NCBI GenBank assembly: GCA_964446735.1
Contig: CAYUQB010000003.1
Location: 40,897 to 101,284 of the forward strand
DNA: 60,388 nucleotides
Direction: 5' to 3'
Source: an uncultured Candidatus Saccharibacteria bacterium
Lineage (GTDB): Bacteria; Patescibacteriota; Minisyncoccia; Phycocordibacterales; Phycocordibacteraceae
Shown here in pieces: positions 5,950-49,853 of the stretch. Numbering within the stretch: position 1 is the stretch's first letter; each line of letters starts with the position of its first letter. The notes under the pieces are model-generated. The model saw nothing but the letters and a program-made list of their open reading frames with translations. It was not told the origin of the DNA and ran no database searches. A program made the position numbers and the translations under genes.

Positions 5950-6417
5950 TTACCCGCACGTCGTGTGAGAGTGTTCAGCGCCAACGACTTGTCGCTTCTT
6001 ATATTCAGCACTCCATCCCACGTAATTTGAAAGGACTTGGAAGAACGAACCCAATGCTGCAATAGCGAGCACGAGCACAATGGGCCAGGCGTACGGTGTG
6101 AGGAAGTAGAAGAAGACTACCGTTGCACCAAACCAAAGACCGGTGCACCACGGACAGGTAAGGAGAGTGTGGAGTGTGCCACGAAATGTCTCGGGACGAG
6201 CGCCCACGAACCAATCACGGATGAACTTTGTGATGGAGTCATAGGTGAAGAGTCGGGTAAGACGCCAGACGGCAAGCGATAGAAGCAGGATGTCGCCTAG
6301 GCCGATGGTGCGGTAAAAGGCACCAAGCGTAGATAGGAACCAGATGCCGCCAAAAAGGAGTATGGCGAAGAAGAAGGATAAAATGATATTCCAGAAATGG
6401 TTGCGCAACGTATTCAT
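5950..6417 (-). CDS. DUF1360-family membrane protein
   Basis: LAVWRLTRLFTYDSI and LLTCPWCTGLW motifs. Confidence 0.75.
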   Translation of the reverse strand: MNTLRNHFWNIILSFFFAILLFGGIWFLSTLGAFYRTIGLGDILLLSLAVWRLTRLFTYDSITKFIRDWFVGARPETFRGTLHTLLTCPWCTGLWFGATVVFFYFLTPYAWPIVLVLAIAALGSFFQVLSNYVGWSAEYKKRQVVGAEHSHTTCG

Positions 6418-6452
6418 ACGATCAGTGTATCCTACTCTCATATCGTATTCCT

Positions 6453-7199
6453 ATGGACATCCCCAAAGAGGAGCTCGCGCATCTGATCCGGGATAAGTAC
6501 CGGGGGAATAAGAACGCAGATATTTCAGATGATGTCGCGCGTCTTTCGGCAGGCGAACCACTTGCCTATGTCATAGGCTGGCTTCCCTTTTTGGGTCTGC
6601 GTATCGAACTCGATTCTCGTCCTCTCATTCCTCGCCCCGAGACTGAATGGTGGACTGAACTCCTTATCGAGCACGTCCGGTCGCGTTTTGGTACGGGACC
6701 AGTACGCATACTTGATGTGTGTGCAGGGTCTGGAGCTGTTGGGCTTGCGCTCCTTCACCACTGCGAGAATGCCCTGGTGTCCTTTGGCGAGCTCTCGCCC
6801 GAGCATGCTGGGCAAATCAAGCGGAATATTCAAAAGAACGGGCTTGATGAATCTCGAGCGCAGGTGCGCGTGGGAGATCTCTTCGAACCGTTCCTACACG
6901 ATACGTTCGACATTATCGCTGCCAATCCTCCGTATGTTCCGCAAGGGCGCGTACTCGACCGGAGCGTAGCCGAGTATGAGCCCCTTGATGCTCTCTATGC
7001 GGGTGAGGATGGTCTCGATCTTATCCGACGTATCGCAACCCATGCCCCTCACCACCTTCCGAAGGGTGGTGAGGTTTGGATGGAGTGTGACTCTGAGCAC
7101 GCACAGGATGCTGCAACGCTCATGGGTCTTGCTGCAGGGCGCGTCCTTGTCCGCAAGGACCAGTATGGGCGGGACCGGCTCGTGCTAGCCTATTACTGA
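6453..7199 (+). CDS. prmC: Release factor glutamine methyltransferase
   Basis: GEPLAYVIG, LIPRPETE, LDVCAGSG, NPPY. Confidence 0.92.
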   Translation: MDIPKEELAHLIRDKYRGNKNADISDDVARLSAGEPLAYVIGWLPFLGLRIELDSRPLIPRPETEWWTELLIEHVRSRFGTGPVRILDVCAGSGAVGLALLHHCENALVSFGELSPEHAGQIKRNIQKNGLDESRAQVRVGDLFEPFLHDTFDIIAANPPYVPQGRVLDRSVAEYEPLDALYAGEDGLDLIRRIATHAPHHLPKGGEVWMECDSEHAQDAATLMGLAAGRVLVRKDQYGRDRLVLAYY

Positions 7200-7426
7200 T
7201 GCAGGGCTCGTCCACCAGCCTCCTTCAGGTCGCCGCACTCCCCATCGCGCAGGTGCTGCCGGTTGTTTTCTTTTTTGTTTTCCTGGTCTGGGTGGTGTTC
7301 ACGCTGGTTGCTGCATACCACTGGTTCCGTTATAGCAACGCCACGACCATGGCGCTCTGTGCGATGACCACGCACCTCATCGTCTCCGCGATGATCGCGA
7401 TATACGCCGTAAGTGGTTTTGCATAG
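7199..7426 (+). CDS. Small two-TM membrane protein
   Basis: Two hydrophobic segments; ATG overlaps the prmC stop. Confidence 0.7.
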   Translation: MQGSSTSLLQVAALPIAQVLPVVFFFVFLVWVVFTLVAAYHWFRYSNATTMALCAMTTHLIVSAMIAIYAVSGFA

Positions 7427-7428
7427 AT

Positions 7429-8390: not shown

Positions 8391-8585
8391 TGGTAATCCT
8401 CCCCATATCTGGCATAGCACAGCGCTACCCAGAGCTGTTGGCGAGCCTACCACTGTTTATGAAAAACTCAATCAATACTCTTGCATTACTGCACCTTTCT
8501 ATCCCCATTTGACGACTTCGTGAAGCGGGAGTACAAGGCTACAAGCGCTCTCCTTGGTTTAGGCGCATAGATACGGAGAGATACG

Positions 8586-9248
8586 ATGAAGGTACTGTCC
8601 ATCGAGCCCGATGCGACGACCGCGTCGGATCTGGGCTCTATGCTCGTGCGTCACAACCACGAGTTCATTAACGTCACCAGCGCTGAAGAAGCGCTCCACA
8701 CTGCGCGGCGGGCGCCGGCAGATATCATCCTCGAGAACTACAAGCTCGAAGGAGACGAGTTCATCAGTGCATTGCGTATGAAAGCCTGCGTTGAGACGCC
8801 GCTCATCGTGCTCGGTCCCCGCGGATGGGAACCTGTGATCGAATGTCTCGACAAAGGTGCCGACGATTACCTGGCGCGCCCGTTTCATCTTTACGAGCTC
8901 TTAGTCCGGATGGTGGCGGTTACCCGTCGAGGCCGGCCACGGCTTCAACCTATCGATGTGGGCCCGCTGCGTTATAATCCGGAGCTGTCCACGTTTAGCA
9001 TCGACGCTGTGGTCCTGCACTTCACGAGGGTCGAGTACCACATGTTAGTCCATCTTGTCCTCCATGCAGGACAGGTCGTTTCTCACCTCGACCTCCATCG
9101 TAGCTATGCCGAAGACGACAATCGGCGAACCAACGTCGTCGAGGTGATGGTGAGTAAGATCAGGAAGCGATTAGATCCGGTACTCGCCACGGGCGCGCTC
9201 AAACTAGAGACGATCCGCGGCGTGGGCTACCGTCTCTCGGCACCGTAA
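8586..9248 (+). CDS. Orphan OmpR/PhoB-family response regulator with atypical receiver
   Basis: GADDYLARPF, winged helix NVVEVMVSKIRKRL...ETIRGVGYRL; TTGACG-17-TACAAG promoter; SD GGAG. Confidence 0.85.
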   Translation: MKVLSIEPDATTASDLGSMLVRHNHEFINVTSAEEALHTARRAPADIILENYKLEGDEFISALRMKACVETPLIVLGPRGWEPVIECLDKGADDYLARPFHLYELLVRMVAVTRRGRPRLQPIDVGPLRYNPELSTFSIDAVVLHFTRVEYHMLVHLVLHAGQVVSHLDLHRSYAEDDNRRTNVVEVMVSKIRKRLDPVLATGALKLETIRGVGYRLSAP

Positions 9249-9296: not shown

Positions 9297-9353
9297 CTTA
9301 TGGGACATCGGCTTCTCTTTTATCATTCGGCCGTTGTTTGCTACTCTGTATCC

Positions 9354-10628
9354 ATGAGCGAAAAGCAGGCCGTATCCACGGAGCCCTATAAGGGCGTGCG
9401 TGATTTCTATCCTGAGGACTGGGCACAGCTGCAAGCGGTGTTCGACATCATTCGTACGAAGCTGCGATTGGCGGGCTATGAAGAGTACAACGCGTCCCCA
9501 CTTGAGCCTGCGGAATTGTACGAAAGCAAAACGTCTGAAGAGATCGTAAGCGAGCAGACCTTCACGTTTACTGATCGTGGTGATCGTCGCGTGACGCTTC
9601 GCCCCGAGATGACTCCTACCCTTGCGCGCATGGTTGCTGCAAAAAAGCGTGAGTTGGTCTTCCCTGTTCGTTGGTTCTCGATCGGCAACCGCTTCCGCTA
9701 TGAGCGACCACAGAAGGGACGGCTTCGCGAGTTCTACCAGGTCGATGTGGACCTCATTGGTATTCCAGATGCGAAGGCAGATGGCGAGATTATTGTTCTT
9801 GCCGCAGAGCTCCTCAAAGCATTCGGTGCATACGAGGGGGACTTCACCATTCGTATCAACTCCCGCGCACTGCTGGATGCAGCAACTACAGCACTTGGGT
9901 ATTCCGAAGCAGAAGCGAAAGAGTATCTTGGACTCCTTGATCGTAAAGCAAAGATGAGTGCGGAGGAGTTTGAGACGGCACGCACGGTGTATCGCAAAGA
10001 TGGAGTAGACGCCCTTGAGCTTATCGAAGGGGGCGCTGCCGGCGTGTCTAACGAGAAGCAGAAACTCCTTGACCTCATAACTGCGTTTGAGGCACGCGGT
10101 ATGAACAACGTAGTATTCGATCCGACAGTGGTCCGTGGCTTCCTCTACTACACGGGTACCGTATTTGAGATATACGACACCAATCCCGAGAATCCTCGTG
10201 CGCTGTTTGGAGGAGGGCGATACGACAATTTGCTCTCTCTATTCGGCGGAGAGTCCATTCCTGCAGTCGGGTTCGCATTTGGGGATGTGACGCTCCTTGA
10301 TTTCCTGCGCGCGCATGGCTATGCTCCTGCCGTTTCTTCCGCTCCGACGGTATTCCTCGGAACCCCCGCACAAACCGACATCCCAGCTGCCCAGGAGTTT
10401 GCACGAGAACTTCGAGAGGAAGGTATTTCGGTGTTGGTACATGTCGGTGATAAGGCACTCGGTGATCAGGTGAAGGAGGCGGTACGTCGGGGGATTCCTT
10501 ATTTCATTGCATACGGCGTACATGAGGCGGAGAGCGCCATGGTGAAGCTGAAGACACTCGCTGAATCTTCCGAACGCGAGATGCCTGCAGCAGAAGTCGT
10601 TCAAGAACTCACGCGCATGCGTCGCTAG
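9354..10628 (+). CDS. hisS: Histidine--tRNA ligase
   Basis: KGVRDFYP, LRPEMTP, FRYERPQKGRLREFYQ, RGFLYYTG, GGGRYD. Confidence 0.95.
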   Translation: MSEKQAVSTEPYKGVRDFYPEDWAQLQAVFDIIRTKLRLAGYEEYNASPLEPAELYESKTSEEIVSEQTFTFTDRGDRRVTLRPEMTPTLARMVAAKKRELVFPVRWFSIGNRFRYERPQKGRLREFYQVDVDLIGIPDAKADGEIIVLAAELLKAFGAYEGDFTIRINSRALLDAATTALGYSEAEAKEYLGLLDRKAKMSAEEFETARTVYRKDGVDALELIEGGAAGVSNEKQKLLDLITAFEARGMNNVVFDPTVVRGFLYYTGTVFEIYDTNPENPRALFGGGRYDNLLSLFGGESIPAVGFAFGDVTLLDFLRAHGYAPAVSSAPTVFLGTPAQTDIPAAQEFARELREEGISVLVHVGDKALGDQVKEAVRRGIPYFIAYGVHEAESAMVKLKTLAESSEREMPAAEVVQELTRMRR

Positions 10629-11210: not shown

Positions 11211-11260
11211 ACGAGACAATTCGCGCTAGGATGCAGCTTGGCGCAGAGGGAGAGAATGGT

Positions 11261-11608
11261 ATGCGCGATCCAGGCTGCGGGAAATTTCGGCCAACCCTTG
11301 ATCTTCTGCTTCCTTCCAGCATCGGGAGAGAGCACCACGAGCGACTGATGTGTGCGGTCCGACGCATGCTCAAACAAGTGGTCGACCCTGACCTGGTCGG
11401 GGTGAATTTCGACCACCACTACGGAGACGTCGACGACGTCGAAGATCCACAAGCCTGGATCATCGGCATCGCCTCCGACTTCCCTACGGGAATGCGTGCG
11501 TGCGAGTTCGCGGTAGCTGCTATCTACTTCGAGCTCAAGAGCGCGTTTTCAGTTCGGATAGCGAATCCGGGGCACACCGAGGAGTTCCTGCTCATCAAGT
11601 TCTCGTGA
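11261..11608 (+). CDS. Hypothetical protein, 115 aa (orphan unit)
   Basis: TTGTAA-16-TAGGAT promoter, SD GAGGGAG, hairpin at 11614-11648. Confidence 0.6.
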   Translation: MRDPGCGKFRPTLDLLLPSSIGREHHERLMCAVRRMLKQVVDPDLVGVNFDHHYGDVDDVEDPQAWIIGIASDFPTGMRACEFAVAAIYFELKSAFSVRIANPGHTEEFLLIKFS

Positions 11609-11674
11609 TCTATGAAGTGCCCTGCCGCGTTCGCGCTGCAGGGACTTCACATTTGTGCGTGATATCCTTTTTGT

Positions 11675-12364
11675 ATGCGTATCCACGCGAAGGAGCTCCT
11701 CATTCCAATCGCCATCCTTTGTGCAGGCATTATCCTTGCAACGGCTATCTATGTCGTACGCGTCCAACACACCCTGGTGAATGGGACTGGGGACCCAGAT
11801 GCCGTACGGCCCGTTGCTCCTTCCGATCACATCGTTGGAAATCCCTCTGCTCCCGTGAAGATCGTTGAGTACGGTGATATTGATAGCTCATACAGTAAAT
11901 CGTTCCAGCTCACCATGGAGCAACTCATGACTGAGTACGCAGATGGGGGAAAGGTCGCCTGGGTCTATCGTCACTTTCCTCTTCCCGAACATACGAACGC
12001 CGCTACTCACGCACTCGCCGCAGAATGTGCGGCTTCACTTTCAGTACCAACCACATTCTTCAGGTTTATAGATGCGCTTCAGGCTGCGGCACCGCATGAA
12101 AACCAATTTAATCCTGCCGGGTATCCTCCTATCGTGGCACAGTTTGGCATTGATGAATCTGCGTTTACGAAATGTGTTGCAGACGGGATGTTCACAAAGA
12201 AAGTACACGAGGACTATCGAAATGCTCTCGAATCAGGAGCAGTCGGTTCGCCATTCATAATACTTCTGGTTGAAGGACAGGAGCCCACCGCGATTAATGG
12301 CGCACTTCCCTATCAGTCGATGAAGAAACTCATCGAACAATCGATTGCAAAAACGGGTGGATAA
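11675..12364 (+). CDS. DsbA/thioredoxin-fold membrane-anchored protein lacking the CxxC motif
   Basis: DHIVGNPSAPVKIVEYGD, VYRHFPL, GAVGSP; CxxC position reads SSYS. Confidence 0.8.
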   Translation: MRIHAKELLIPIAILCAGIILATAIYVVRVQHTLVNGTGDPDAVRPVAPSDHIVGNPSAPVKIVEYGDIDSSYSKSFQLTMEQLMTEYADGGKVAWVYRHFPLPEHTNAATHALAAECAASLSVPTTFFRFIDALQAAAPHENQFNPAGYPPIVAQFGIDESAFTKCVADGMFTKKVHEDYRNALESGAVGSPFIILLVEGQEPTAINGALPYQSMKKLIEQSIAKTGG

Positions 12365-12382: not shown

Positions 12383-15193
12383 CTATGAGAAGAGTTGTAG
12401 CAAATCGTCGTATTCGGACGGCTCTCCGTTGCGCCACCTTCCCGTGAGTAATTCTTGAACGACTTCCTCGAGCGTTGCGAGGAGGTCAGCTCGAGTCTCG
12501 CTCGTGAGCTCGACTGGGTACTCTCTCACCTGCTCGGGACCGACCTGGATAATGCTCGCAGAATTTGGCTGGTGGGCATTCTCGCGCAGAAGCAAATCAT
12601 AGAATGCAAGCTGACGAGCGTACTTCTCGTCCTTGATATGTACATCACTTGAGGTTTTGAAATCTATGATCCGCTCGCCGTCAGGCAGCTCGAAGACTGC
12701 GTCCACCTTCCCTTGAAGCAAAATGGGTGTCCCCGCAATTGAACGAGTGTGGGTAAATACTTTCTCTATCGCACTGGTCTCGAGTGCACTTCCCTCAGCG
12801 ATGTAGCGTGCAAGGCTCTCACGTGCATGGGTGGTCACTCGTTCAAATGCAACGTTCCGAGGAAGGAGCGAGCGAGCGAGGCACCCCGATAGAGCAGCAA
12901 ACGCCCGGTCCTCACTTCTTGTTTGGAGATATTCCGCGATACCGGCATGCACGGCTGAACCGATAGCTGTTGCGGGTGTCTCGGGCTCGTGAAGTCGTAG
13001 TATCCGTCGTGCAAAGAACGTCGGTGGAGATTCTAAGTACTCATTGAAGGCTGAAGGTGAGAGGCCTTCTTCGGTAAGGAAGCGATGAACAAGATCATTC
13101 ACCACCGCTGAAGGTTCGATAGTGGTATGGATGAGCGGGAGCGACTCGGAGGCAGGAGTGATGCGTGGGAGGTGGTCGGGAATAAGGAGTGAGGGTGGCG
13201 TATCGCGTCCTTCACCGCTTTCTGTTGCATAGGAGAGTACGACCTCATCTTTGGCACGGGTAAGCGCGACATAGAAAAGCTTAGTAATGTCCTCGAGGGT
13301 TCGTGTCTGATCGACTGGCGAAGGAATCTTTGCAGGAAGACCACCTTTCTCCCACTGTCGAGCGGTGAGGCCAGCGATGAATACCTGCTCAAATTCCATC
13401 CCTTTTGCCTTATGCGCAGTAATGATTGTCACCTTCCCTTCCGCGTGGGTCCTGCTCGACTTCACCGATTCGAGCCCATGCTCGTTTGCATGGGTGAAGG
13501 CACGCACAATTTCTATAAAGCTCTGGTTCGGATCGCGGGCGACGAGTTCCTCAATATGCATGAAGACCCGTCGCATAAGCTCGATATCTTCAAAGTGCTC
13601 GGGATGAGACAGAAGGTAGGCACGGGCTCCCGTAGCAGCAAGCATGCGAGAGAGGAGCGAGAGTGGTTGCTCTGATAGCGCCTGAGCTTGCAGATCACGG
13701 ATTGTTGCACTCACCGTTGGGTACATCTGTTCAAGTGCAGCCCAGAGTTCACGATCGCGGTTCTTTAAAAGAAGTTCAGCGCGAGGAGCGAGATCCATGG
13801 GCCACCATGGTGCAAGGAGCGTTTCGCGGAGTGCTGCAAGATCGAGTGGATTGGCTACCGCACGCATCGTTGCAAGCACCGCGCGTAGTATCGGACGAGA
13901 TGCAAGCATGACTTCCCCGGCTCGGAGTACCGGAATGTTTTTTGCGAAAAGGTGTTGTGCGAAAAGATCGGCCGTTGCGTTTCTGCTGGTGATTATCGCA
14001 ATTTCGTGGGGAGGTCTCCCTGCATGTATCGATTCTTCGACGAGATTCGCTATCTGATCACGTTCAGCGAGAGGGTCTGGAGCCTCCAGAAGTGAGAGTG
14101 TTGCCTGTCCGCTTCGTGTTGCAGAAAGCTTTGTGTGCTCGCCGGTCGCCGCGGGCACCGCTTGAATAAGGCCGTGCGCGGTATCCAGGATACCCTGCAA
14201 AGAGCGGTAGCTATCTGCGAGATGGATGACTTCGGTGCGTGGATAGTGCTCGACGAATGTTTTGAAGTGCGAAGAATCAGCACCCTGGAAACGATAGATG
14301 GCTTGCTTTTCATCACCCACTACAAAGAGGTTGGGGTGATCGTCGTATGCAAGCGTATCAAGGAGTGTGTGTTGCAGTGCATTCGCATCCTGATGTTCAT
14401 CCGCAAGAATGTATTGGTACTGCTCCTGTACTGACGCTTTCACGTCCGCATCGTGTATGAGCCCATCCACAGCAATCCGGAGTACGTCCGCAAAGTCATA
14501 GACGTTCCGTTCATCTTTCAGTGCCTCGTATGCCTCGATGAGTCGCGCAGCTTCAGCTCCCTTTAAAAGTCGCTCCAGCTTCTTTTCTCCTTCGGGCTTG
14601 AGCTCTCCTTTCTTCTCGCCACGAACATAGAGAAGTGATTCATCGGCTCGTATGCGAGCGCCTTCGTGTTCAAGCCAGGCACGGTACTCAGTGAGCGATA
14701 TGCGTTCACGCACGAGATCGTCCCGGAGTCGGGCAAGATCGCGCAGATAGAAGAACGGTGACTTAGGAGTGCGGAGCGCAGAAAGCTCCTCGGTTTCGAG
14801 CACCTCACGCCACAAGAGCGTGGTCTCAACATCTCCCGCCAGCCGCTTACCACGCGCTTCGAGGAATGAATCAGGATACGTAGAAAGGAGGTGTTCGGCA
14901 AAGCCGTGGAATGTCGAGATGAAAACCTCACGAGCAACCGTCTCACCTATGAGCTCTGCTAAGCGATGACGCACCGTTCGAGCAGCTGATTCGGTGAATG
15001 TGAGAACTAGGACATTGGATGCGTTGGCTTGTGTCCGTCGCAGGATGTTCGCGATACGAAGTGTGAGAATGTGTGTTTTTCCAGTTCCAGGGCCAGCAAT
15101 GACAAGTACTGGTCCTTCCACTGTATCTACAGCCTTCTTTTGGGCTGTATTCAGCCTTTCGTATGCGGCCGTAAAGGCCTTTTCATCTGGCAT
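12383..15193 (-). CDS. UvrD/PcrA-like helicase fused to a C-terminal PD-(D/E)XK nuclease
   Basis: AGPGTGKT, DEHQD, VGDEKQAIYRFQGA, TAHKAKGMEF, FYVALTRAK; GKVD...IIDFKT. Confidence 0.9.
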   Translation of the reverse strand: MPDEKAFTAAYERLNTAQKKAVDTVEGPVLVIAGPGTGKTHILTLRIANILRRTQANASNVLVLTFTESAARTVRHRLAELIGETVAREVFISTFHGFAEHLLSTYPDSFLEARGKRLAGDVETTLLWREVLETEELSALRTPKSPFFYLRDLARLRDDLVRERISLTEYRAWLEHEGARIRADESLLYVRGEKKGELKPEGEKKLERLLKGAEAARLIEAYEALKDERNVYDFADVLRIAVDGLIHDADVKASVQEQYQYILADEHQDANALQHTLLDTLAYDDHPNLFVVGDEKQAIYRFQGADSSHFKTFVEHYPRTEVIHLADSYRSLQGILDTAHGLIQAVPAATGEHTKLSATRSGQATLSLLEAPDPLAERDQIANLVEESIHAGRPPHEIAIITSRNATADLFAQHLFAKNIPVLRAGEVMLASRPILRAVLATMRAVANPLDLAALRETLLAPWWPMDLAPRAELLLKNRDRELWAALEQMYPTVSATIRDLQAQALSEQPLSLLSRMLAATGARAYLLSHPEHFEDIELMRRVFMHIEELVARDPNQSFIEIVRAFTHANEHGLESVKSSRTHAEGKVTIITAHKAKGMEFEQVFIAGLTARQWEKGGLPAKIPSPVDQTRTLEDITKLFYVALTRAKDEVVLSYATESGEGRDTPPSLLIPDHLPRITPASESLPLIHTTIEPSAVVNDLVHRFLTEEGLSPSAFNEYLESPPTFFARRILRLHEPETPATAIGSAVHAGIAEYLQTRSEDRAFAALSGCLARSLLPRNVAFERVTTHARESLARYIAEGSALETSAIEKVFTHTRSIAGTPILLQGKVDAVFELPDGERIIDFKTSSDVHIKDEKYARQLAFYDLLLRENAHQPNSASIIQVGPEQVREYPVELTSETRADLLATLEEVVQELLTGRWRNGEPSEYDDLLQLFS

Positions 15194-15261
15194 TCCACTA
15201 TTCTATCGTGAGGTGGAGGTGGAAAGAAATTAGCGAGGAAAAAATTGTTTGGATTTATATG

Positions 15262-15903: not shown

Positions 15904-15977
15904 CTCACGCTCGACAGATGAGCGGGACAGCGTTATAAGGAAGATCGGCTTCAGCTTTTTGAAGGGAGTATCTATCT

Positions 15978-16337
15978 ATGGAGGATCTCCACACCATACG
16001 TGCGCAGGAGGGCTTCTACGAGAAACTGGCGTCCTACATCGATCAAGGCCTCCACTCGGGCCAGATCTATCGTCGGTTGGGCGAGGACTTTCCGAACGCC
16101 ACCTTGCCGCGTTGCGTGAGCGGTATCAACACCTGGCTTTCCACGCGCAAGACCTGGCAGACGTTCGTCGACAAGCTCGGACGCGAGAGGACGGAAGTCC
16201 TCTGGGCGAAGCACCAGTCTCGCCTGCGCGTCTGGCTCGGTAGGCGACACGAGCCACAAAGCCTCGACCAAATGCTGGGACTCGCCCCGCCAGACGAGGT
16301 CCAGCCCAGGTTTAGCGAGCGCCTTCGCTACGGCTAA
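15978..16337 (+). CDS. Hypothetical protein, 119 aa (orphan unit)
   Basis: TCGACA-17-TATAAG promoter, SD AGGGAG, hairpin 16363-16390. Confidence 0.6.
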   Translation: MEDLHTIRAQEGFYEKLASYIDQGLHSGQIYRRLGEDFPNATLPRCVSGINTWLSTRKTWQTFVDKLGRERTEVLWAKHQSRLRVWLGRRHEPQSLDQMLGLAPPDEVQPRFSERLRYG

Positions 16338-16415
16338 CACCAGCTCACGCTCCTTGGACGACGGCCGCTTCCCCACATGAGGAAGCGGCCCGTTCCTTTG
16401 CCGTATACTGTCTGT

Positions 16416-23505: not shown

Positions 23506-23527
23506 CGCTTTCACAGGGAGACTATCG

Positions 23528-38910: not shown

Positions 38911-38952
38911 AGCCCGAATATAACATGGAGAAATGAAGACAGTGAGAACGTG

Positions 38953-41166: not shown

Positions 41167-41233
41167 CAGGAAAAGTATACCGTATGTATACGCGACTCCG
41201 CTCCCTGCGATACGCGAGGGAGCGGATGAAGGA

Positions 41234-41518
41234 CTAGTGGATCACGGCGAGATACAGGCCGATCAGGAACCCGGCGACCAGGAAGACGCGGACATAGAAC
41301 AGGTACTGCAGCTTCCGGAACTGGTGACAGAGCCAGAGCGCCGCGAATCCGACGATGAGCGCTGGACCCATGTTCACGAGATAGGGATCGAGAGACGAGG
41401 GCGTCGGGACCTCCGGCATTCCGAGGAACCCGATAGCAGCCGTCACGATGACGAAGACCGCGAACCATAGCCCGGGCCGGTGTGGATCGTACAGTTTGAA
41501 TGCGCCTCGCTTGAGCAT
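41234..41518 (-). CDS. Three-TM membrane protein (orphan unit)
   Basis: TTGGCT-17-CATACT promoter, SD GGAGGG, downstream hairpin. Confidence 0.65.
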   Translation of the reverse strand: MLKRGAFKLYDPHRPGLWFAVFVIVTAAIGFLGMPEVPTPSSLDPYLVNMGPALIVGFAALWLCHQFRKLQYLFYVRVFLVAGFLIGLYLAVIH

Positions 41519-41576
41519 GGCGAAACCCTCCAGTGGACCTGGGGTAAGTATGTATCACGCTCGCGAACCAGCCAAC

Positions 41577-42263
41577 CTACCACCCCGTCTTATCCAGTGC
41601 TGCCTGAGCCGCTACTTGTTCTGCATCTTGCTTAGACTTCCCTGCTCCTCGCGCGACTTCTTCATCACCCAGATATACCCCAACCGTGAACTTCTTATCG
41701 TGATCGGGTCCGACTTCAGCGACGGTGCGGTACGTGGGCGTGGTGCTCCGCTTTTCTTGTGCTGCTTCCTGGAAGCGACTCTTTGCGTCCTGCCACGTAC
41801 GCTTGGCGATAATGTCATCGATCTTTGGATAGAGGGTGCGGGCAACAAATACTTCTGCCGCTTCGTATCCTTGATCGAGATAGATGGCGCCCAGTACGGC
41901 TTCGTATGCGTTCGCGAGAATAATGTCGCGTGCACGACCAGTGTCCTTGGCTTCTCCTTTTGAAAGAAGGAGCATGTCATTCACTCCGAGTCCTCGTGCG
42001 CTTTCGGCAAGCGAAATGGTGTTCACGAGTGCAGCGCGATATGCCGTCAGCTCCCCTTCAGGCTTCTCGGGGAACTTCGTAAAGAGAAAATTCGTGACCA
42101 CAAGTTCGAGTACCGCATCGCCCAAGAATTCAAGGCGTTCATTATGCGATCCTGCCGCTTTATGCTCATTCAAATATGAACGATGCGTCAGCGCCTCGAC
42201 GAGAAGGTCGAGGTTCTGGAATGAGACGCCGAGGCGCTCTGCATGTGCCTTGAATTCGGTCAT
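41577..42263 (-). CDS. rnc: Ribonuclease III
   Basis: ALTHRSY, NERLEFLGDAVL, dsRBD. Confidence 0.97.
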   Translation of the reverse strand: MTEFKAHAERLGVSFQNLDLLVEALTHRSYLNEHKAAGSHNERLEFLGDAVLELVVTNFLFTKFPEKPEGELTAYRAALVNTISLAESARGLGVNDMLLLSKGEAKDTGRARDIILANAYEAVLGAIYLDQGYEAAEVFVARTLYPKIDDIIAKRTWQDAKSRFQEAAQEKRSTTPTYRTVAEVGPDHDKKFTVGVYLGDEEVARGAGKSKQDAEQVAAQAALDKTGW

Positions 42264-42294
42264 GACCGTACACTAGCGCACTTCCTTGAAATTG

Positions 42295-43333: not shown

Positions 43334-43699
43334 TTAGCCTCCTGCTTGTCCGCCCATGCCGCTGCGTGCCTTCGCACGTCCGGTGACCATGCGACCGAGT
43401 ACCCCCTGACTCTTGCGCTCGCGATCTTCGGTCTTCACGTCGTGCTTCACTGCCGGCGGATTGGTGTTCTCCCCGTGCTCGTGTTCGACTGCTTTCGACT
43501 TCTTTTTCTTTTCTTCCTTTTTCAATTCCTTCTTCGCGACAATCTGCTTACCGCGGTACATGCCCGTTGTTTCATCGAGACGATGAGGGAGGCGAAGGTT
43601 TCCGCTTTCCTTATCAGCAACGACTGAGGCTGCCGTAATAGCATGATGGCTCCGGCGATTGCGGGTATGGGAACGGGTGTGACGCATTCGAACTGACAT
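43334..43699 (-). CDS. rpmF: 50S ribosomal protein L32 (Zn-free type) with long C-terminal extension
   Basis: MSVRMRHTRSHTRNRRSH...LPHR....GMYRGKQI. Confidence 0.85.
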   Translation of the reverse strand: MSVRMRHTRSHTRNRRSHHAITAASVVADKESGNLRLPHRLDETTGMYRGKQIVAKKELKKEEKKKKSKAVEHEHGENTNPPAVKHDVKTEDRERKSQGVLGRMVTGRAKARSGMGGQAGG

Positions 43700-43847
43700 G
43701 AGGCATACCCTACCACAGGGCCTTATTCCTCGCCAGTCTTACGCACCAACTCCCCTTGCCGAACGATACCCGTGTGGGAAGCTATATACAGGCCCGCTCT
43801 CGTTCCGTGGGGGAATGAGCGGCCTGAACGCAGTAAAAGGTGTTGCC

Positions 43848-44053: not shown

Positions 44054-44629
44054 CTATACATGGAGAAATGTTTTTCGATGGATCTCACAGGGTCCATGCG
44101 TACGGATACGTTCGTAGTGAAGTTTCGTCCCATACCCCTTATGAACCTCGAAGCTGTAGTGCGGAAATACTAGCGCAATCTTTTTCATATACCGGTCCCG
44201 CGTTACCTTCGCCGCAATTGATGCAAGCATGATCACCGGCGCAATGCCGTCCCCTCCGATAATAGTTTCTTGGCGGTATTCAGGAGGTGCTCGAAGGGAA
44301 CCATCCAGAAGTACGTTCCCATCTTCCGGATTTGGAAGAAGTGCTTCCACACCTGCGGCAACTGCAGCACGCACGACTGGCGCGATACCGTGTGTATCAA
44401 TCTTCTGTGCACTTGAAAGGCGTACGACCGCGTGCACTCGGCCTGCGTGCATCTCTTGTTGCAGGAGTGCGAATAGCTTTTCACGTCGCTTTTCGGAGAG
44501 TTTCTTCGAGTCATTGAGTCCCGGAAATGCGGAAAGAACATCGAACCCCTCTTCGACCCGAACAATTCCTACCGCGACTGGTCCGGCCAAGGGTCCCCTC
44601 CCTGCTTCGTCCACACCCACGAGATACAT
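44054..44629 (-). CDS. rnhB: Ribonuclease HII
   Basis: GVDEAGRGPLAGPV, DSKKLS, AASI-like LASIAAKVTRD, HKGYGT. Confidence 0.95.
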   Translation of the reverse strand: MYLVGVDEAGRGPLAGPVAVGIVRVEEGFDVLSAFPGLNDSKKLSEKRREKLFALLQQEMHAGRVHAVVRLSSAQKIDTHGIAPVVRAAVAAGVEALLPNPEDGNVLLDGSLRAPPEYRQETIIGGDGIAPVIMLASIAAKVTRDRYMKKIALVFPHYSFEVHKGYGTKLHYERIRTHGPCEIHRKTFLHV

Positions 44630-44672
44630 GCGTCTAGGATACCAGTCAGGACAGTTTTGGTATCCTTGAGGG

Positions 44673-47600
44673 ATGTCAGGGAAATTCGTTCACCTCCACA
44701 CACATTCACACTATTCCTTCCTGCAGGCACTCCCGAAGGTTCCTGAGCTCGTGAAGGCCGCAAAGGCAGCCGGTATGCCGGCGCTCGGACTTACGGACTC
44801 TGGCAATCTTCATGGGGTCGTCGAGTTCTATAAGGTGGCGAACAAGGCTGGGGTGAAACCTATCATTGGCGTAGATGCCTACGTCGCACATCGTTCGCGC
44901 TTTGATAAGGGAACGGGAGATGAACAGAAACGCTCCCGGCTTGTGCTGCTCGCAGAAAACAACGAAGGGTATCGAAACCTCATGGTGCTCGTTACCAAAG
45001 CCTTCACCGAAGGACTCTTCGATCGTCCACGCATGGATAAGGAATTACTGCGTGCGCATCATGCGGGTCTTATTGCGATTATTCCTTCATTTGCCGGCGA
45101 AGTAGCACAGCACCTTAAGGCAGGAGATGCGGCGGGAGCCGGTGCTGCGCTTGCTGAATACGTGAGCATATTCGGAAAAGACAATGTCTTTCTTGAGATT
45201 ACGCATCACCCCAAAGTATCTGGACACGAGGGACGTATGGATGCGATTAAGGAGCTCGCGAAGACCGGGGGGGTTCCGCTTCTCGCCCAGCACGACGTCT
45301 ACTATCTCCGCCCATCCGACCGAGAAGCAACCGAAGTCATGCGGCGCATTGCTCATGGTTCTGAAGGTAGAAACGAAGAGGAAGATTTCTCCTTCGTAAA
45401 AGAAGAGCAGATGAAGAAGTGGTTTGCAGACGTACCGGATGCCGTCATGCGCTCGGGTGACATTGCCGAACGATGTACAGTAACCCTTGAGCTTGGTGGA
45501 TGGAACTTCCCTGCCATCCCTACCGAACCGAACAAGACCCACGGACAGATGCTGCGTGAACAAACCTATGCGGGACTTGAACTCCGTGGCATGGAGCGAA
45601 CCAAGGAAGTAGAGGACCGTATTGAATATGAACTTGAAGTCATTATCGGCAAGGGGTTTGCACCCTACTTCCTTGCGGTCTCGGATCTCCTTACCTTTGC
45701 GAAAGAATCAGGCATCCTTTCTACGACGCGCGGTTCGGCAGCCGGCTCCCTCGTCTCCTATCTCACGGGAATTACGAACGTTGACCCGCTGTTTTATAAA
45801 CTACCGTTTGAGCGCTTCCTTAACCCCGAGCGCCCCAAGGCACCGGACATCGACATGGACTATGCCGATAACCGTCGGGACGAAATGATCCAGTACGCGA
45901 AGCGTAAGTACGGTGATGACCACGTCGCACAGATTGGTACCTTCGGCACCATGATGGCGCGCGCTGCGGTCAGAGATGTGGCGCGCGCGCTTGGTCACGC
46001 ATACCGCACCGGTGACCAGATCGCCAAACTAATTCCGCTTGGAAGCCAGGGATTTCCGATGACTATCGAACGAGCACTCACCCTCGAGCCGGAACTTAAG
46101 AAACTCTACGACGAAGATGAGGACGCGCGCGAAGTCATCGACCTGGCCCAACAGATGGAAGGATGTGTGCGACATACGGGAGTGCATGCGGCAGGGGTCG
46201 TTATCTCCCCTACTCCGCTCACCGACTGGACACCGCTCCAGACTGACCCCAAGACCGGAAAGCTCATCACACAGTACGACATGCATGCAGTTGAAGAAGT
46301 CGGCCTGCTTAAGTTCGACTTCCTCGGCATCAAGAATCTCGCTATCCTCGCGGATGCTATTGAACGCGTGAAGGCGACTCGTGAAGAAGTCATCGATATT
46401 GAAAACATTCCGCTTGATGACGCAAAGACCTTTGAGATGCTCGCGCGTGGCGAGACTGAAGGCACCTTCCAGCTGAACGGCTCGGGTATGACTCGCTACC
46501 TTAAGGAGCTCCGCCCCACCACCATCCATGACATCAACGCCATGGTGGCCTTGTATCGTCCTGGACCTATGGAAACCATTCCGCAGTACATCGAGCGCAA
46601 ACGGAATGCGAACCTCGTTCGGTATCTTGATCCGCGCATGAAGGACTATCTCGACGCGTCATACGGTCTCTTGGTGTATCAAGACGACGTGCTCCTTACC
46701 GCTATTACGCTTGGTGGGTACTCCTGGCTTGAGGCAGATACGCTTCGCAAGGCGATGGGTAAGAAGATCCCTGCGGAGATGGAGGCACAGAAGGAGAAGT
46801 TGCTCAAGGGCTTTGCAGAGTACGGGAAGCTCTCAAAGGAAAAGGGTGAGCAACTCTGGAAGCTCATCGAACCATTCGCTGCGTACGGGTTCAATAAGGC
46901 GCATGCCGCCTGTTACGGCAAAGTGGCGTACCAAACGGCATACATGAAAGCCAACTACCCGGTTGAATACATGGCGGCGGTGCTCACCGCAGATGCGGGC
47001 GACACCGACTCTATCGCCATCTTCGTTGCTGAGTGTGAGCGTATGGGTATTCCGGTGCTTCCCCCTGACGTAAACGAATCAGGTCCTGACTTCACGGTCG
47101 CAGGAAACGCAAAGGACACCATCCGCTTCGGACTGACATCGATTAAGAACTTTGGTGAAGGTATATCGCAGGCGATACAGGAAGAGCGCGCGCACGGTCC
47201 GTTCACGAGCCTTTCGGATTTTCTTTCGCGAGTTCGTTCACGGAACCTAAACCGCAAGTCTTTGGAATGTCTCATCAAGTCTGGTGCGCTCGATCGCTTC
47301 GGTGAGCGCTCACACTTGCTTTCCCATATTGAAACCCTGCTGGCATTTCATAAGGATGCGACCGCAGAGGCGACCCAGGACTCGCTCTTTGGCGCGATGG
47401 CCTTCGCTGCACCCGAATTGAAACTACCAGGCGCCGAACGTCCAACTTCCCTTTCGGATAAGCTTGCATGGGAACGAGAACTCCTGGGTATCTATGTGTC
47501 CGGACATCCACTGGATAGTCATATGGATAAGATCGCGAAGGCGGCGACTACTATCGGTGCGATCAAAGCGGAACCGCAGCCAGGCCTTCCTGTTATCCTC

Positions 47601-47828: not shown

Positions 47829-47865
47829 TGTAATACGGGAATCTCGACCAAGGAGGGTTACGGAG

Positions 47866-48030
47866 ATGTGGCGTATGCGACAACGACGCCTGCTCAGACG
47901 AGCGCTGCGGAAGACCCGCCAGGAGGCGGGCAACCGAACGGTCCGAAGCAGGAAGAGCAAGGCGCGTATCAAGCGAGATCAACCCAGGTGCTCAACGAAC
48001 AAGAAGCGGCCTCGGGGTTGGTGGTGGTGA
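47866..48030 (+). CDS. Arg/Lys-rich peptide, 54 aa, not in the ORF track
   Basis: MWRMRQRRLLRRALRKTRQEAGNRTVRSRKSKARIKRDQPRCSTNKKRPRGWWW; AAGGAGGG and GGAG upstream; hairpin 48044-48074 after the stop. Confidence 0.55.
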   Translation: MWRMRQRRLLRRALRKTRQEAGNRTVRSRKSKARIKRDQPRCSTNKKRPRGWWW

Positions 48031-48104
48031 TCACCGTGTGCGTTCGGGCGGCCCTTTCGGAGCCGCCCACACGCTTTTACGTCGCGCATGCTATCCTCTT
48101 TTTC

Positions 48105-49853
48105 ATGGCCTCGCTTGAGGAAAAACGTCACACCCTCGCGCATCTACTAGCGGCTGCCGTGCTTGAACGCTACCCGCACGCCAAGCCCACGCTTGGTCCT
48201 GCGATTGATACCGGGTTTTATTACGACTTCGACTTCTCCGCTGGAGAAGCGCCGAAAGAAGCAGATCTTGCGGCGCTCGAGGACGCAATGCGCGATCTCC
48301 TTTCTTCGTGGACCGAGATGGCTGGTACGGAAGTATCAGAAAAAGATGCCCGGGATCGGTTTTCGGATAACCCCTACAAGCTGGAACTGATTAGCGGGAT
48401 TGTCGAAGCTGGTGAGCCTATTACGCTCTACACCGCCGGAAACTTTACCGATCTATGTCGAGGTGGACACAGCGAGACCCCCGCACACGACATAAAGGCC
48501 GACACATTTGCACTCGATCGCATCGCGGGAGCGTACTGGCGTGGTGACGAGACGAAGCCAATGCTTACTCGGATCTATGGACTTGCCTTTAGCACCAAGG
48601 AAGAACTCGAAGAACACCGAGCCAGAATAGAGGAAGCGAAGAAACGTGATCACCGCAAGCTTGGCGTGGAGCTCGACCTCTTCACCTTCTCTCCGCTCGT
48701 CGGTTCAGGACTTCCTCTCTATACCCCCAATGGAACCATTATGCGTGAGGAGCTTGCGCGCTATTCAGAGGAACTTCAGCGCGCGCACGGATTTAAGAAA
48801 GTGTGGATCCCACACATTACAAAGACTGATTTGTATAAAACATCCGGGCACTGGGACAAGTTCGGTGATGAGCTCTTCCTCGTCAAAAGTCAGGAGTCAT
48901 CGGACGAGTTCGTCATGAAGCCAATGAACTGCCCGCATCACACCCAAATCTACGCAAGTAAGCCGCGTAGCTACCGTGACCTCCCTATCCGGTACATGGA
49001 AACCACTACCTGCTACCGCGACGAAAAGACTGGTGAGCTGTCGGGCCTTACGCGCGTCCGTTCCCTGACCCAAGATGATGCACATGTGTTCTGTACGATG
49101 GATCAGATCGAGCAGGAGTTTGAAAACATCATGTCCATGATCAAGGAAATGTATGACACGCTCGGCCTTTCCTTCCGTGCACGTCTTTCCTTTAGTGACC
49201 CAGAGCACCCGGAAAAATACTTAGGGGAAAAAGCGGTATGGGCTCAGGCAGAGGAAACCCTTGAGAGCATTACAAAAAAACTTGGTCTTGAATATGAAAT
49301 CGCTCCAGGCGAAGCGGCGTTCTATGGCCCGAAGATCGACATCATGGTCACCGATGCACTCGGTCGGGAGTGGCAATGCGCAACGGAACAACTCGACTTC
49401 GTACAACCTGCGCGTTTCTCTCTTGAATACACCGCCGAGGATGGTACGAAGAAAACACCCGTGATGATTCATAAGGCACTCCTTGGTACCATCGATCGTT
49501 TTATGGGTGTCTACATAGAACACACAGGAGGACAGTTCCCAGTCTGGCTTTCACCGGTTCAGGCAACGGTGCTTCCGGTGTCCGAAAAGCATCTTGAATA
49601 CGCCAAAAAAGTCGCTGATGCACTCAGCGTGCAGGACGTACGAGCTGAAGTCGATACAGCAAATGAATCGCTCGGAAAAAAGATCCGAAACGCCAAGCAA
49701 CAGAAGATTCCGTATCTGCTTGTCGTGGGAGATAAAGAGGCTGAGAGCGATACCGTCACGGTTGAGATGCGGGGAGACGAAAAGCTTGGAGCGTTGAAAC
49801 TCTCTGAATTCACAGAACGGATTACACGAGAGATCAAAGAACGCAGTCTATAA
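48105..49853 (+). CDS. thrS: Threonine--tRNA ligase
   Basis: RHTLAHLLAAAV, DLCRGGH, KPMNCPHH, TRVRSLTQDDAH, AAFYGPKID; start 48105 with TATCCT box 7 nt upstream. Confidence 0.97.
   Translation: MASLEEKRHTLAHLLAAAVLERYPHAKPTLGPAIDTGFYYDFDFSAGEAPKEADLAALEDAMRDLLSSWTEMAGTEVSEKDARDRFSDNPYKLELISGIVEAGEPITLYTAGNFTDLCRGGHSETPAHDIKADTFALDRIAGAYWRGDETKPMLTRIYGLAFSTKEELEEHRARIEEAKKRDHRKLGVELDLFTFSPLVGSGLPLYTPNGTIMREELARYSEELQRAHGFKKVWIPHITKTDLYKTSGHWDKFGDELFLVKSQESSDEFVMKPMNCPHHTQIYASKPRSYRDLPIRYMETTTCYRDEKTGELSGLTRVRSLTQDDAHVFCTMDQIEQEFENIMSMIKEMYDTLGLSFRARLSFSDPEHPEKYLGEKAVWAQAEETLESITKKLGLEYEIAPGEAAFYGPKIDIMVTDALGREWQCATEQLDFVQPARFSLEYTAEDGTKKTPVMIHKALLGTIDRFMGVYIEHTGGQFPVWLSPVQATVLPVSEKHLEYAKKVADALSVQDVRAEVDTANESLGKKIRNAKQQKIPYLLVVGDKEAESDTVTVEMRGDEKLGALKLSEFTERITREIKERSL

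Follow-up and report, generated by a model that had tools for sequence, protein, structure and literature searches.

The stretch of DNA considered here (60,388 nucleotides, hereafter the window) raises the question of why so many of its start codons follow closely upon a hexamer of the type TAnnnT, and what this arrangement may imply for expression of the genes concerned. The window derives from an ultra-small groundwater bacterium of the Patescibacteria (CPR), within the Paceibacteria/Parcubacteria group. A preliminary description had listed 19 genes with a -10-like hexamer 6-7 nt before the ATG; all 19 hexamers are present at the spacing given (6 nt in 14 genes, and 7 nt in dnaG, rnr, smc, rpmF, and thrS), and a twentieth, absent from that list, precedes orf85 (Table 1). 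That observation is confirmed, and the interpretation attached to it is partly supported. It is likely that conserved genes here are leaderless or near-leaderless, and that the variable orphans lying between them are carried on leadered mRNAs with an SD.

Table 1. Start-proximal motifs in the window (motif, spacer in nt, start codon; positions on the window).
Feature	Motif	Position	Strand	Gene	Remarks
DUF1360	TACACT-6-ATG	6415..6429	-	5950-6417	motif match, Pfam
prmC-like methyltransferase	TATCGT-6-ATG	6441..6455	+	6453-7199	Pfam
hisS	TGcTACTCT-6-ATG	9342..9356	+	9354-10628	
DsbA-like thioredoxin	TGaTATCCT-6-ATG	11663..11677	+	11675-12364	Pfam
UvrD/PD-(D/E)XK helicase-nuclease	TAGAAT-6-ATG	15191..15205	-	12383-15193	
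AI-2E transporter	TATACT-6-ATG	16404..16418	+	16416-17453	Pfam
orf85	TATACT-6-ATG	18316..18330	-	18061-18318	orphan, leaderless-type
DM13	TGcTACGAT-6-ATG	19576..19590	+	19588-20097	
rpoD	TACTCT-6-ATG	21360..21374	-	20094-21362	Pfam
dnaG	TAAGAT-7-ATG	23102..23117	-	21422-23104	
Nucleoside deoxyribosyltransferase-like	TGcTACACT-6-ATG	32624..32638	-	32261-32626	
HD domain	TGcTAGGCT-6-ATG	33570..33584	+	33582-34532	divergent from rpsP
rnr	TGcTACAGT-7-ATG	34624..34639	+	34637-36598	
HicB/UPF0150-like	TGtTATATT-6-ATG	38908..38922	-	38701-38910	Pfam
smc	TATACT-7-ATG	41164..41179	-	38953-41166	
rnc	TAGTGT-6-ATG	42261..42275	-	41577-42263	
rpmF	TGgTAGGGT-7-ATG	43697..43712	-	43334-43699	
rnhB/dnaE, divergent	TATCCT in both; each TGGTATCCT-6-ATG	44627..44675	-/+	ATG 44629 (rnhB), ATG 44673 (dnaE)	
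thrS	TGcTATCCT-7-ATG	48092..48107	+	48105-49853	582 aa
rpsP promoter	TTGACT-17-TGgTACGCT	33498..33545	-	ATG 33497	12 nt before ATG; conserved in orthologues
OmpR-type response regulator	GGAGAG-5-ATG	8575..8588	+	8586-9248	Pfam
orf115	GGAGAG-6-ATG	11249..11263	+	11261-11608	orphan
orf119	GGGAG-9-ATG	15964..15980	+	15978-16337	orphan
MOSC	GGGAGG-4-ATG	18885..18897	+	18895-19512	TACTAT 32 nt upstream of ATG
orf67	GAGGAG-8-ATG	23190..23206	+	23204-23407	orphan
orf82	AGGGAG-7-ATG	23515..23530	+	23528-23776	orphan
orf113	TTGACT-18-TGtTATAAT, then GGAG-8-ATG	31516..31596	-	31177-31518	orphan
orf61	GGGAGG-5-ATG	36865..36878	-	36682-36867	orphan; TAGTAT 30 nt upstream
orf54	GAGGAG-6-ATG	38435..38449	-	38273-38437	orphan
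orf94	GGAGGG-7-ATG	41516..41531	-	41234-41518	orphan; between rnc and smc
54-aa basic ORF	AAGGAGG-9-ATG (47866)	47850..48030	+	47866-48030	orphan; dnaE-thrS gap
orf396	GGGGAG-9-ATG	54070..54087	-	52882-54072	orphan; signal-peptide-like N-terminus, GC-rich island

Within the window, ATGs that open a reading frame of 100 aa or more are preceded by TAnnnT in 13 cases at a spacer of 6 and in 10 at a spacer of 7, compared with an average of ~2.6 for the remaining spacers between 0 and 15. The bare motif is only weakly above shuffled sequence for TANNNT-N6-ATG (22 vs 13.9 +/- 3.4; 2 of 100 shuffles reach 22), and its count in the window is not significantly raised for TANNNT-N7-ATG (19 vs 14.2). These raw counts, barely exceeding the shuffles, count against the main reading, and together with the selection of seven starts downstream of another start codon they favor an explanation by chance and biased choice of start codons. 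It is the placement before ATG, not the raw number of motifs, that is far from chance; the more specific TGNTANNNT-N6-ATG has 8 matches where 0.81 are expected, a number that none of 100 shuffles reaches.

The seven genes with an earlier in-frame start codon are hisS, AI-2E, rpoD, dnaG, rnr, thrS, and DUF1360. The starts chosen for thrS, rnr, and dnaG are backed by homologues, and that of hisS fits its Pfam match, in which the HisRS profile would begin at residue 14; those of AI-2E, rpoD, and DUF1360 are putative and were chosen on the motif, a point counted against the main reading. For thrS, a PDB alignment begins 2 residues past ATG 48105, nearly all of 119 homologues among the matches listed are 578-596 aa long, and orthologues carry TGnTAnnnT-8/9-ATGGC. 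The public gene call assigns the AAGGAGG of the 54-aa ORF (Table 1) to GTG 47868 and stretches thrS to 661 aa; judged by its homologues, ATG 48105 is the true start.

The layout was compared in 80 related rpoB loci, across which TGnTAnnnT-6..10-ATG recurs. Counts of TGnTANNNT peak at spacers 6-10 (49, 35, 26, 25, and 14, against ~4), and the layout is almost exclusive to ATG (121 ATG, 7 GTG, and 4 TTG starts in the peak). At orthologous starts the hexamer and its spacing are constant while the surrounding sequence varies: TAnAnT-7-ATG is kept in 19 of 21 smc orthologues, and the box in 25 of 32 for rnr (22 with TG), 6/6 for uvrD (as TAnnnT), and 5/5 for rpmF. The rpoB, KH, trmD, and rpoC families carry the box near control level. 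Chance with biased start choice was rejected on the spacer-specific peak, the TG extension, orthologue conservation, homologue lengths, and the clade-wide peak, and retains practically no probability.

The sequence ahead of the hexamers bears on what they are. G occupies position -14 in 17 of the 20 (binomial p 1.4e-7) and TG is present in 11, which points to extended -10 promoters. The TGn of such promoters is contacted by sigma region 3.0, and in the window's RpoD regions 1.1-4, including region 3, are all found by Pfam. As in extended -10 sigma-70 promoters generally, TG lies one base upstream of the hexamer and the -35 is weak or absent; unlike the usual case, the element is used here genome-wide and at a fixed 6-7 nt from ATG. 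Two-hexamer sigma-70 sites are not enriched in the window (6 vs 10.1 expected), and none falls at a leaderless start. The rpsP gene has a canonical promoter and a predicted leader of ~5 nt, without an SD.

Alternatively, TAnnnT might be a translation signal within the mRNA, lying in a longer leader whose transcription starts further upstream. Unusual signals other than the SD have been described ahead of start codons in other phyla (PMC3160421), and the leaderless reading is built on sequence logic, its transcription start sites being deduced. Yet the invariant T, A, and T, the TGn, and the distance of 6-7 nt are traits of a sigma-70 -10 element, and in the rpsP and dnaG families a -35 box stands 17 nt upstream of the hexamer (TTGTCAA-17-TAGAAT-7-ATG in dnaG orthologues). 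Divergent pairs leave only 35-43 nt between their ATGs, with no space for other promoters: DUF1360 and the prmC-like methyltransferase gene are 35 nt apart, and the rnhB and dnaE boxes form a 9-bp inverted repeat inside a 43-nt intergenic region. Several boxes, such as that of DM13, lie directly behind terminator-like hairpins, and conserved operon-internal genes are without a box. A translation signal is accordingly quite improbable. Promoter -10 elements abutting the ATG are supported by the TGn, the -35 at 17 nt, orthologue conservation, ATG exclusivity, and the tight divergent pairs, and leaderless or near-leaderless mRNAs are then the best reading. The earlier proposal that these mRNAs begin at or near AUG is to that extent favored by motif, spacing, and conservation, with the start positions themselves predicted.

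Twelve units in the window are instead SD-led, with GGAG to GGGAGG 4-9 nt before ATG, and 8 of the 11 examined have a TAnnnT of their own 27-55 nt upstream of the ATG, in agreement with the leadered, GGAG/GGAGG-bearing orphans described earlier. The division follows gene conservation, as had been claimed. In the window a two-by-two table of leaderless conserved versus SD-led orphan genes (19, 1; 2, 9) gives p = 2.5e-5. Across the 80 loci, taken as an independent set, the SD 5-mers are most frequent at spacers 5-9 (27, 36, 24, 20, and 14, against ~6), and 109 of the 121 ORFs with an SD at the peak spacers (90%) are without a relative in the other loci. Of the unique ORFs, the SD-led ones divide into 74 orphan and 10 shared, and the leaderless ones with TG into 30 orphan and 103 shared (an odds ratio of 25), "orphan" being scored against rpoB neighborhoods only, so that some may have conserved counterparts at other places in other genomes. 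In each of 24 conserved families, fewer than 25% of the members have an SD.

The wording "systematically leaderless" was nevertheless too strong, holding for most conserved genes and failing for operon-internal and leadered ones. The conserved, operon-internal rpoC, trmD, and KH genes have neither a -10 at the ATG nor an SD, rpoB has a leader without an SD, and the leaders of rpsP, gyrB, sortase, and CARDB are a few nucleotides long. Conversely, the deoxyribosyltransferase-like gene, orf85, and the hicB-like gene are leaderless-type yet lineage-specific. The first is an insertion between KH and trmD with no tblastn match in the 80 loci, and orf85 has no match in a Pfam search. The response regulator and MOSC genes are SD-led yet Pfam-annotated; the public gene call agrees on the MOSC start.

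The SD-led ORFs are mostly small and encode putative proteins. Neither Pfam nor PHROG gave a match for orf115 or orf119, and a search of 5.8 billion proteins gave no homologue of orf113. The SD-led orphans could instead be open frames arising by chance in GC-rich spacers, not genes, and the split an artefact of ORF calling; they are short (median ~130 aa), without homologues, and rich in GC3 (7.5% above the GC of their own locus), as is typical of chance ORFs. This is unlikely, given that the sharp SD peak 5-9 nt before ATG has its excess entirely in the orphan class, which base composition could not produce. Codon-position composition is moreover coding-like (G 0.34 at position 1, 0.20 at position 2), an excess of TGnTAnnnT lies 10-50 nt ahead of these ATGs, and the same procedure would find leaderless-type orphans, yet these are the minority.

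Position within operons offers a further explanation, with leaderless genes standing first and SD-led genes internal. A leaderless start is possible only at an mRNA 5' end, and orf115 and orf94 each follow a same-strand gene at short distance. Against this, the conserved internal genes rpoC, trmD, KH, and DUF1905 have no SD and rely on overlaps or short gaps (DUF1905 follows orf85 by an ATGA stop/start overlap, ATG 18064), and most of the SD-led units examined have the upstream TAnnnT noted above. The promoter of orf113 matches 11/12 consensus positions, with the end of its TATAAT 48 nt from the ATG. An effect of position only is very improbable.

Under the preferred reading, with conserved genes leaderless and orphans SD-led, the heads of conserved transcription units would mostly carry a -35-less extended -10 (TGnTAnnnT) ending in a T 6-7 nt ahead of ATG. 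The product of the window's rpoD, the housekeeping sigma factor, would direct initiation on the A of ATG or 1-2 nt upstream of it, and the resulting leaderless mRNA would be translated by start-codon recognition with no SD contact; conserved genes further down the operon would be reached through overlapping stop and start codons or across short gaps free of SDs. ORFs that are small and lineage-specific, along with a few accessory genes, would use a second route; they lie in the gaps between conserved units, each with its own -10 at 27-55 nt from the ATG and, 4-9 nt before it, a strong SD of GGAGG type. In the dnaE-thrS gap, other relatives have differing SD-led small ORFs. In this scheme the sites of transcription start, the mechanism at the ribosome, and a functional anti-SD are predictions from sequence.

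The split may have its cause in gene history, old genes keeping the inherited promoter-at-ATG layout and new or acquired genes arriving with, or evolving, a leader and SD. The preliminary description had suggested that the cell might tell self from acquired mRNA, treating its own leaderless and foreign SD-led messages differently, for example by ribosome tuning. The very strong split by conservation and the departure of SD-led ORF composition from the host locus would suit this suggestion, but nothing was found in favor of discrimination itself: no component able to sense the difference came to light, leaderless starts also occur at some lineage-specific genes, and SD-led ORFs have good host-type -10 boxes and in one case a near-consensus promoter, which looks like expression rather than exclusion. 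Gene history accounts for the pattern with fewer assumptions and no extra machinery; it is the most economical cause, a recognition system is not needed, and discrimination is a distinctly unlikely one.

Comparable layouts are known elsewhere. In Deinococcus-Thermus (D. deserti, D. radiodurans, and Thermus), TANNNT a few nucleotides before the start codon, without an SD and conserved across species, has been reported as a promoter -10 yielding leaderless mRNA, and annotation errors have been reported at such starts (PMC4007540, PMC12340547). The other upstream motif that predominates in Deinococcus is an RBS motif (PMC12340547). The window shares with Deinococcus-Thermus an SD-free TANNNT adjoining the start codon and kept across species, and differs in phylum (Patescibacteria), in the frequent TGn and the scarcity of -35 elements, and in that start sites are predicted here; unlike in Deinococcus, only non-conserved ORFs make use of the SD. 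Actinobacteria (M. tuberculosis, M. smegmatis, and Streptomyces) combine leaderless and SD-led genes, with a TANNNT -10 at ~7 nt (PMC3898074, PMC3160421). The window likewise has both kinds side by side, with TANNNT near 7 nt. In Actinobacteria the SD is widely used on conserved genes, unlike the 0/24 conserved families here, and the present genome is tiny and of moderate GC. The mechanism itself is known from Deinococcus and Actinobacteria; no report was found in the literature linking a -10-at-ATG leaderless architecture to this group.

Within the same broad group, a study that makes no mention of leaderless genes found the anti-SD at lower frequency in a subgroup of the Parcubacteria (Tsurumaki et al. 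2022; PMC9297842). A scarce anti-SD would fit the SD-free conserved genes here. It would sit oddly with functional SDs, and is counted against the main reading (PMC9297842). The positional SD peak speaks for an anti-SD that is still functional, in many of these genomes at least.

Pfam annotation of the window, covering about 50 ORFs, brings out a compact housekeeping set (including hisS, a uvrD-like gene, rpoD, dnaG, rpoB, rpoC, trmD, rpsP, rnr, gdh, smc, rnc, a nusB-NUDIX fusion, rpmF, rnhB, dnaE, thrS, and gyrB), with many small ORFs without a family in between. The preliminary description, made from the sequence alone, had placed a hexamer of the form TAnnnT 6-7 nt before the ATG of 19 genes, and every one of these hexamers was found at the distance given; one more, not listed there, precedes the 85-aa orphan orf85 (orphans being small lineage-specific ORFs, named by length), bringing the leaderless-type starts to 20. 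Counted over the whole window, TANNNT-N6-ATG gives 22 matches vs. 13.9 +/- 3.4 in shuffles and TANNNT-N7-ATG gives 19 vs. 14.2, so the raw count hardly rises above shuffled sequence and, on its own, would come close to the outcome that the preliminary description named as a refutation, but the placement of the hexamers is far from chance. Before ATGs that open ORFs of at least 100 codons, TAnnnT occurs 13 times at a spacer of 6 nt and 10 times at 7 nt, vs. a mean of about 2.6 at the other spacers from 0 to 15. A feature that the preliminary description did not use is a G two bases upstream of the hexamer (-14), present at 17 of the 20 starts (binomial p = 1.4e-7), with a full TG at -15/-14 at 11 of them; TG and hexamer together are the extended -10 element of sigma-70 promoters. 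The pattern TGNTANNNT-N6-ATG is matched 8 times in the window vs. 0.81 expected, a number reached in 0 of 100 shuffles.

At sigma-70 promoters transcription starts about 7 nt after the -10 box, and an upstream TGn compensates for a missing -35 element. Classical two-hexamer -35/-10 sites number 6 in the window vs. 10.1 expected, fewer than in shuffles and none at a leaderless start, and an alignment of the leaderless starts has no consensus at the -35 position. The promoters at these starts are therefore of the -35-less kind, and the failure of the two-hexamer scan to detect them was read as the lack of a -35 element rather than of promoters. The RpoD encoded in the window contains region 3 (Sigma70_r3, E = 9e-20). 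The start codon is ATG in 20/20 cases, and none of the 20 has GGAG or GGAGG between box and ATG, in keeping with the earlier statement that a Shine-Dalgarno (SD) motif is lacking apart from the one beside the dnaE start, which is a GAGGG adjoining the ATG. In leaderless translation a ribosome with initiator tRNA binds the 5'-terminal AUG directly. At a spacer of 6 nt, position +1 would fall on the A of the ATG, and the mRNAs of these genes would begin at the start codon and be bound there by ribosome and initiator tRNA. Three further boxes were discarded: the one before orf51 because this ORF is an antisense shadow of smc, opposite its conserved 3' end, and those before rpoC and at 7199 as chance, because the stop codon or 3' end of the preceding gene overlaps their ATGs.

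Seven of the 20 leaderless-type starts are preceded by another start codon within their ORF, and the choice of start is best documented for thrS. The public gene call for the ThrRS of the window (P0093) begins at a GTG and is 79 residues too long: solved ThrRS structures align only from residue 82 of this long form onward, which is residue 3 counted from the ATG behind the -10 box, and among the 119 closest homologues listed nearly all have 578-596 aa, with 95-100% coverage of the 582-aa form. In three distinct relatives (from five loci fetched with DNA) the protein begins M-A-S-L-E, and TGnTAnnnT stands 8-9 nt before the start, behind a terminator-like hairpin. The AAGGAGG upstream of thrS serves a separate, basic ORF in another frame, and the gene caller borrowed the SD of this small neighbor when extending thrS. 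Callers that favor an SD or the longest ORF will in the same manner misplace leaderless starts in CPR genomes. For dnaG, rnr, and smc, alignments of orthologues fix the same ATG, and the start of hisS agrees with the position of the Pfam profile; the starts of the AI-2E, rpoD, and DUF1360 genes are supported by the motif alone. ThrRS itself is without the N-terminal TGS domain, its homology to solved structures running from the editing (N2) domain on.

With RpoB as query, species-representative genomes yielded 80 loci, the rpoB neighborhoods of related genomes, at RpoB identities of 64-94%, most of them labeled Patescibacteria, Parcubacteria, Paceibacterota, or CPR candidate phyla (e.g., Adler-, Kaiser-, Taylor-, and Zambryskibacteria). 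At orthologous starts in these loci hexamer and distance are retained while neighboring bases vary: smc relatives have TATACT, TACAAT, or TATAAT 7 nt before the ATG; dnaG relatives have TTGTCAA, 17 nt, TAGAAT, 7 nt, ATG; and rnr relatives have cTGCTAnAGT followed by 7-9 nt. TAnnnT at 5-9 nt is found in 19/21 members for smc, 25/32 for rnr, 6/6 for uvrD, 5/5 for rpmF, and 20/37 for dnaG, and the signal is inherited at 3/3 orthologous dnaE starts; for rpoB, KH, trmD, and rpoC the counts are near the level of control spacers. Relatives of rpsP share TTGACC, 17 nt, TGgTACnCT, 12 nt, ATG, from which a leader of some 5 nt follows. In a pool of every candidate ATG close to an ORF 5' end across the 80 loci, TGnTANNNT occurs 49, 35, 26, 25, and 14 times at spacers of 6-10 nt, respectively, vs. 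about 4 elsewhere; the promoter-at-ATG layout is therefore a property of the clade, beyond this window alone. At the same spacers the element precedes ATG 121 times, GTG 7 times, and TTG 4 times, and such restriction to ATG is what one would expect of mRNAs whose 5' end is the start codon itself. A further, isolated peak of the element lies 13 nt ahead of TTG (12 cases) and may represent second codons of short-leadered genes. That the conserved genes heading their units would be leaderless is well supported by sequence and comparison; no RNA runs matching the window or L016, one of the 80 loci, were found, and for another, L047, contigs of three peat metatranscriptomes of the same study gave only 35-65-nt cross-matches at 90-95% identity.

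The second part of the preliminary description, that orphan units are led by an SD and have leaders, was borne out. Twelve ORFs of the window have GGAG to GGGAGG 4-9 nt before the ATG, and 8 of the 11 SD-led units examined have TAnnnT 27-55 nt upstream of the ATG; these ORFs would use a normal anti-SD. The promoter of orf113 matches the consensus at 11 of 12 positions, and no homologue of its product was found among 5.8 billion proteins. Ten of the 12 SD-led ORFs are without a Pfam family, the exceptions being a response regulator and a MOSC protein with relatives at about 60-70% identity that include Parcubacteria and one Poribacteria record. No PHROG family was found among the 10 orphans scanned, so a phage origin is not shown. 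The frames of several orphan ORFs were set by coding potential and inspection of start sites rather than by the longest ORF.

Within the window, initiation mode (leaderless or SD-led) against presence or absence of a Pfam family gives [[19,1],[2,9]] (p = 2.5e-5; 11 SD-led units, before the twelfth was added). Since orphans could have been noticed in the first place through their SD, the test was repeated blind on the 80 loci, where an orphan was an ORF without a tblastn match in any other locus, as judged against rpoB neighborhoods only. SD 5-mers at spacers of 5-9 nt number 27, 36, 24, 20, and 14, vs. about 6 elsewhere, and the excess falls wholly within ORFs without a match elsewhere (109/121). 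Among unique ORFs, 74 SD-led ones are orphan and 10 shared, while 30 leaderless ones with TG are orphan and 103 shared (odds ratio 25; p = 2e-22, or 3e-21 without the window, both p-values being inflated by relatedness). The ten shared SD cases seem for the most part to be ATGs inside conserved genes, or starts of such genes that were set wrongly (e.g., in rnc, rnr, KH, and dnaG). Of 24 conserved families, none reaches a quarter of members with an SD, and 10 have a leaderless box in at least half. The SD-led orphans resemble coding sequence (G 0.34 at codon position 1 and 0.20 at position 2), with GC3 relative to locus GC at +7.5%, vs. -4% for leaderless orphans. By these locus- and family-level tests the two regimes, a leaderless core and SD-led orphans, are real and clade-wide. 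Between dnaE and thrS, both conserved and leaderless, the small SD-led ORFs differ from relative to relative and are unrelated to one another, so that this gap acts as a hypervariable slot. Hardly any SD 4-mers occur in the conserved families of the 80 loci. By raw count, SD-like 4-mers 4-11 nt before the ATG appear scarce in rpoB (1/78), KH (1/57), trmD (1/58), and rpoC (0/41), which, if they are truly avoided there, would hint at an active anti-SD. [quoted passage not shown]

To call the core systematically leaderless, as was done at the outset, holds for most conserved genes that head a unit but is overstated. The rpoB gene has a long leader without an SD, gdh has its box at 9 nt, nusB has TAGTAC at 6 nt, and rpsP, gyrB, and the sortase and CARDB genes have inferred leaders of a few nt. 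Conserved downstream genes (rpoC, trmD, DUF1905, and the exonuclease after hisS) begin at stop/start overlaps or behind short SD-free gaps. The deoxyribosyltransferase, orf85, and a hicB-like gene are lineage-specific yet leaderless; the first, lying between KH and trmD, has no counterpart in the 80 loci and has its own extended -10 element. The suggestion that the two modes let the cell tell its own mRNA from acquired mRNA is speculative; the split is more simply put down to gene history. A wider proposal is offered tentatively and is rather doubtful: that initiation mode in Paceibacteria is split by gene age, all conserved families being SD-free (leaderless, coupled, or short-leadered) and SD/anti-SD pairing serving almost only fast-turnover small ORFs in variable slots, as a separate, tunable channel for accessory, possibly host-interaction, proteins. 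An age-split of initiation might be linked to the reduced CPR ribosome.

The architecture seen here is the same as that of leaderless genes in Deinococcus-Thermus and Actinobacteria (PMC3160421; PMC4007540; PMC12340547; PMC3898074), and leaderless genes are biased toward information-processing categories (Zheng et al., 2011). One feature goes beyond anything found described, the near confinement of the SD to non-conserved ORFs. In the literature searched, no report ties leaderless genes to CPR, Patescibacteria, or Parcubacteria. The nearest is a study that found the anti-SD motif less frequently in one subgroup of Parcubacteria and does not discuss mRNA leaders (PMC9297842), and this oddity now becomes testable. 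With a promoter-at-ATG layout, promoters and transcription units of unculturable organisms can be predicted by a simple rule, and the succession of terminator, -10 box, and ATG within 30-60 nt is in line with a reduced ribosome and an extremely streamlined genome. If the split is genome-wide, it offers a clean natural system for how new genes gain translation signals, and would help with the question of whether leaderless initiation is the ancestral state of this deep lineage.

Coordinates of individual features, in the window unless a related locus (L081, L084) is named
Feature	Coordinates	Strand	Length (aa)	Start or signal
GC-rich island	2000-4000
ORF facing the RRM gene	4025-4609	opposite to RRM gene	194
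RRM-domain protein	4847-5200		117 (probable)	ATG 4847
Discarded box	7199	+		TAGCCT-7-ATG
orf85	18318	-	85
rpoC, discarded box	27625	-		TAATTT-7-ATG
Nucleoside deoxyribosyltransferase-like	32261-32626			TGcTACACT-6-ATG
rpsP	33030-33497		155
orf51, discarded	38933	+	51	TAACAT-6-ATG
smc	38953-41166		737
nusB-NUDIX fusion	42295-43269		324	TAGTAC-6-ATG
rpmF	43334-43699		121
dnaE-thrS gap (length of its small SD-led ORF), window	47829-48104		53
Basic ORF upstream of thrS	47866-48030		54	ATG 47866
ThrRS, public call	from 47868		661	GTG 47868
thrS	48105-49853		582	ATG 48105
GC-rich island	50000-54000
orf843	50229-52760	-	843
dnaE-thrS gap (length of its small SD-led ORF), L081	1135-1296		53
dnaE-thrS gap (length of its small SD-led ORF), L084	767-1448		83

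DNA runs matching the window came from groundwater metagenomes only, and the product of dnaE had no record by exact look-up. The closest relative (L019; JBLNCF010000004.1), with an RpoB 94% identical and the same gene order, was deposited as "Bacillota bacterium MAG132," a label that looks wrong for a Paceibacteria-type locus. The GC content of the window is about 55%, and two islands that hold large ORFs without a family reach 0.59-0.62 vs. 0.55 overall; in one of them the product of orf843 has a membrane anchor followed by over 20 consecutive prolines. For the RRM-domain protein the probable form is the short one rather than the 388-aa longest ORF, over the rest of which the ORF on the opposite strand has the better coding score. 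A single ORF, starting behind a hairpin, encodes NusB fused to a NUDIX hydrolase domain. The SMC protein is just 737 aa and the SMC_N profile covers residues 1-722, so that, judged from this match, its coiled coil must be much shorter than in a typical bacterial SMC. The Pfam domains of the rpmF and rpsP products (56 and 62 positions, respectively) account for about half of either protein, both being extended beyond the domain.
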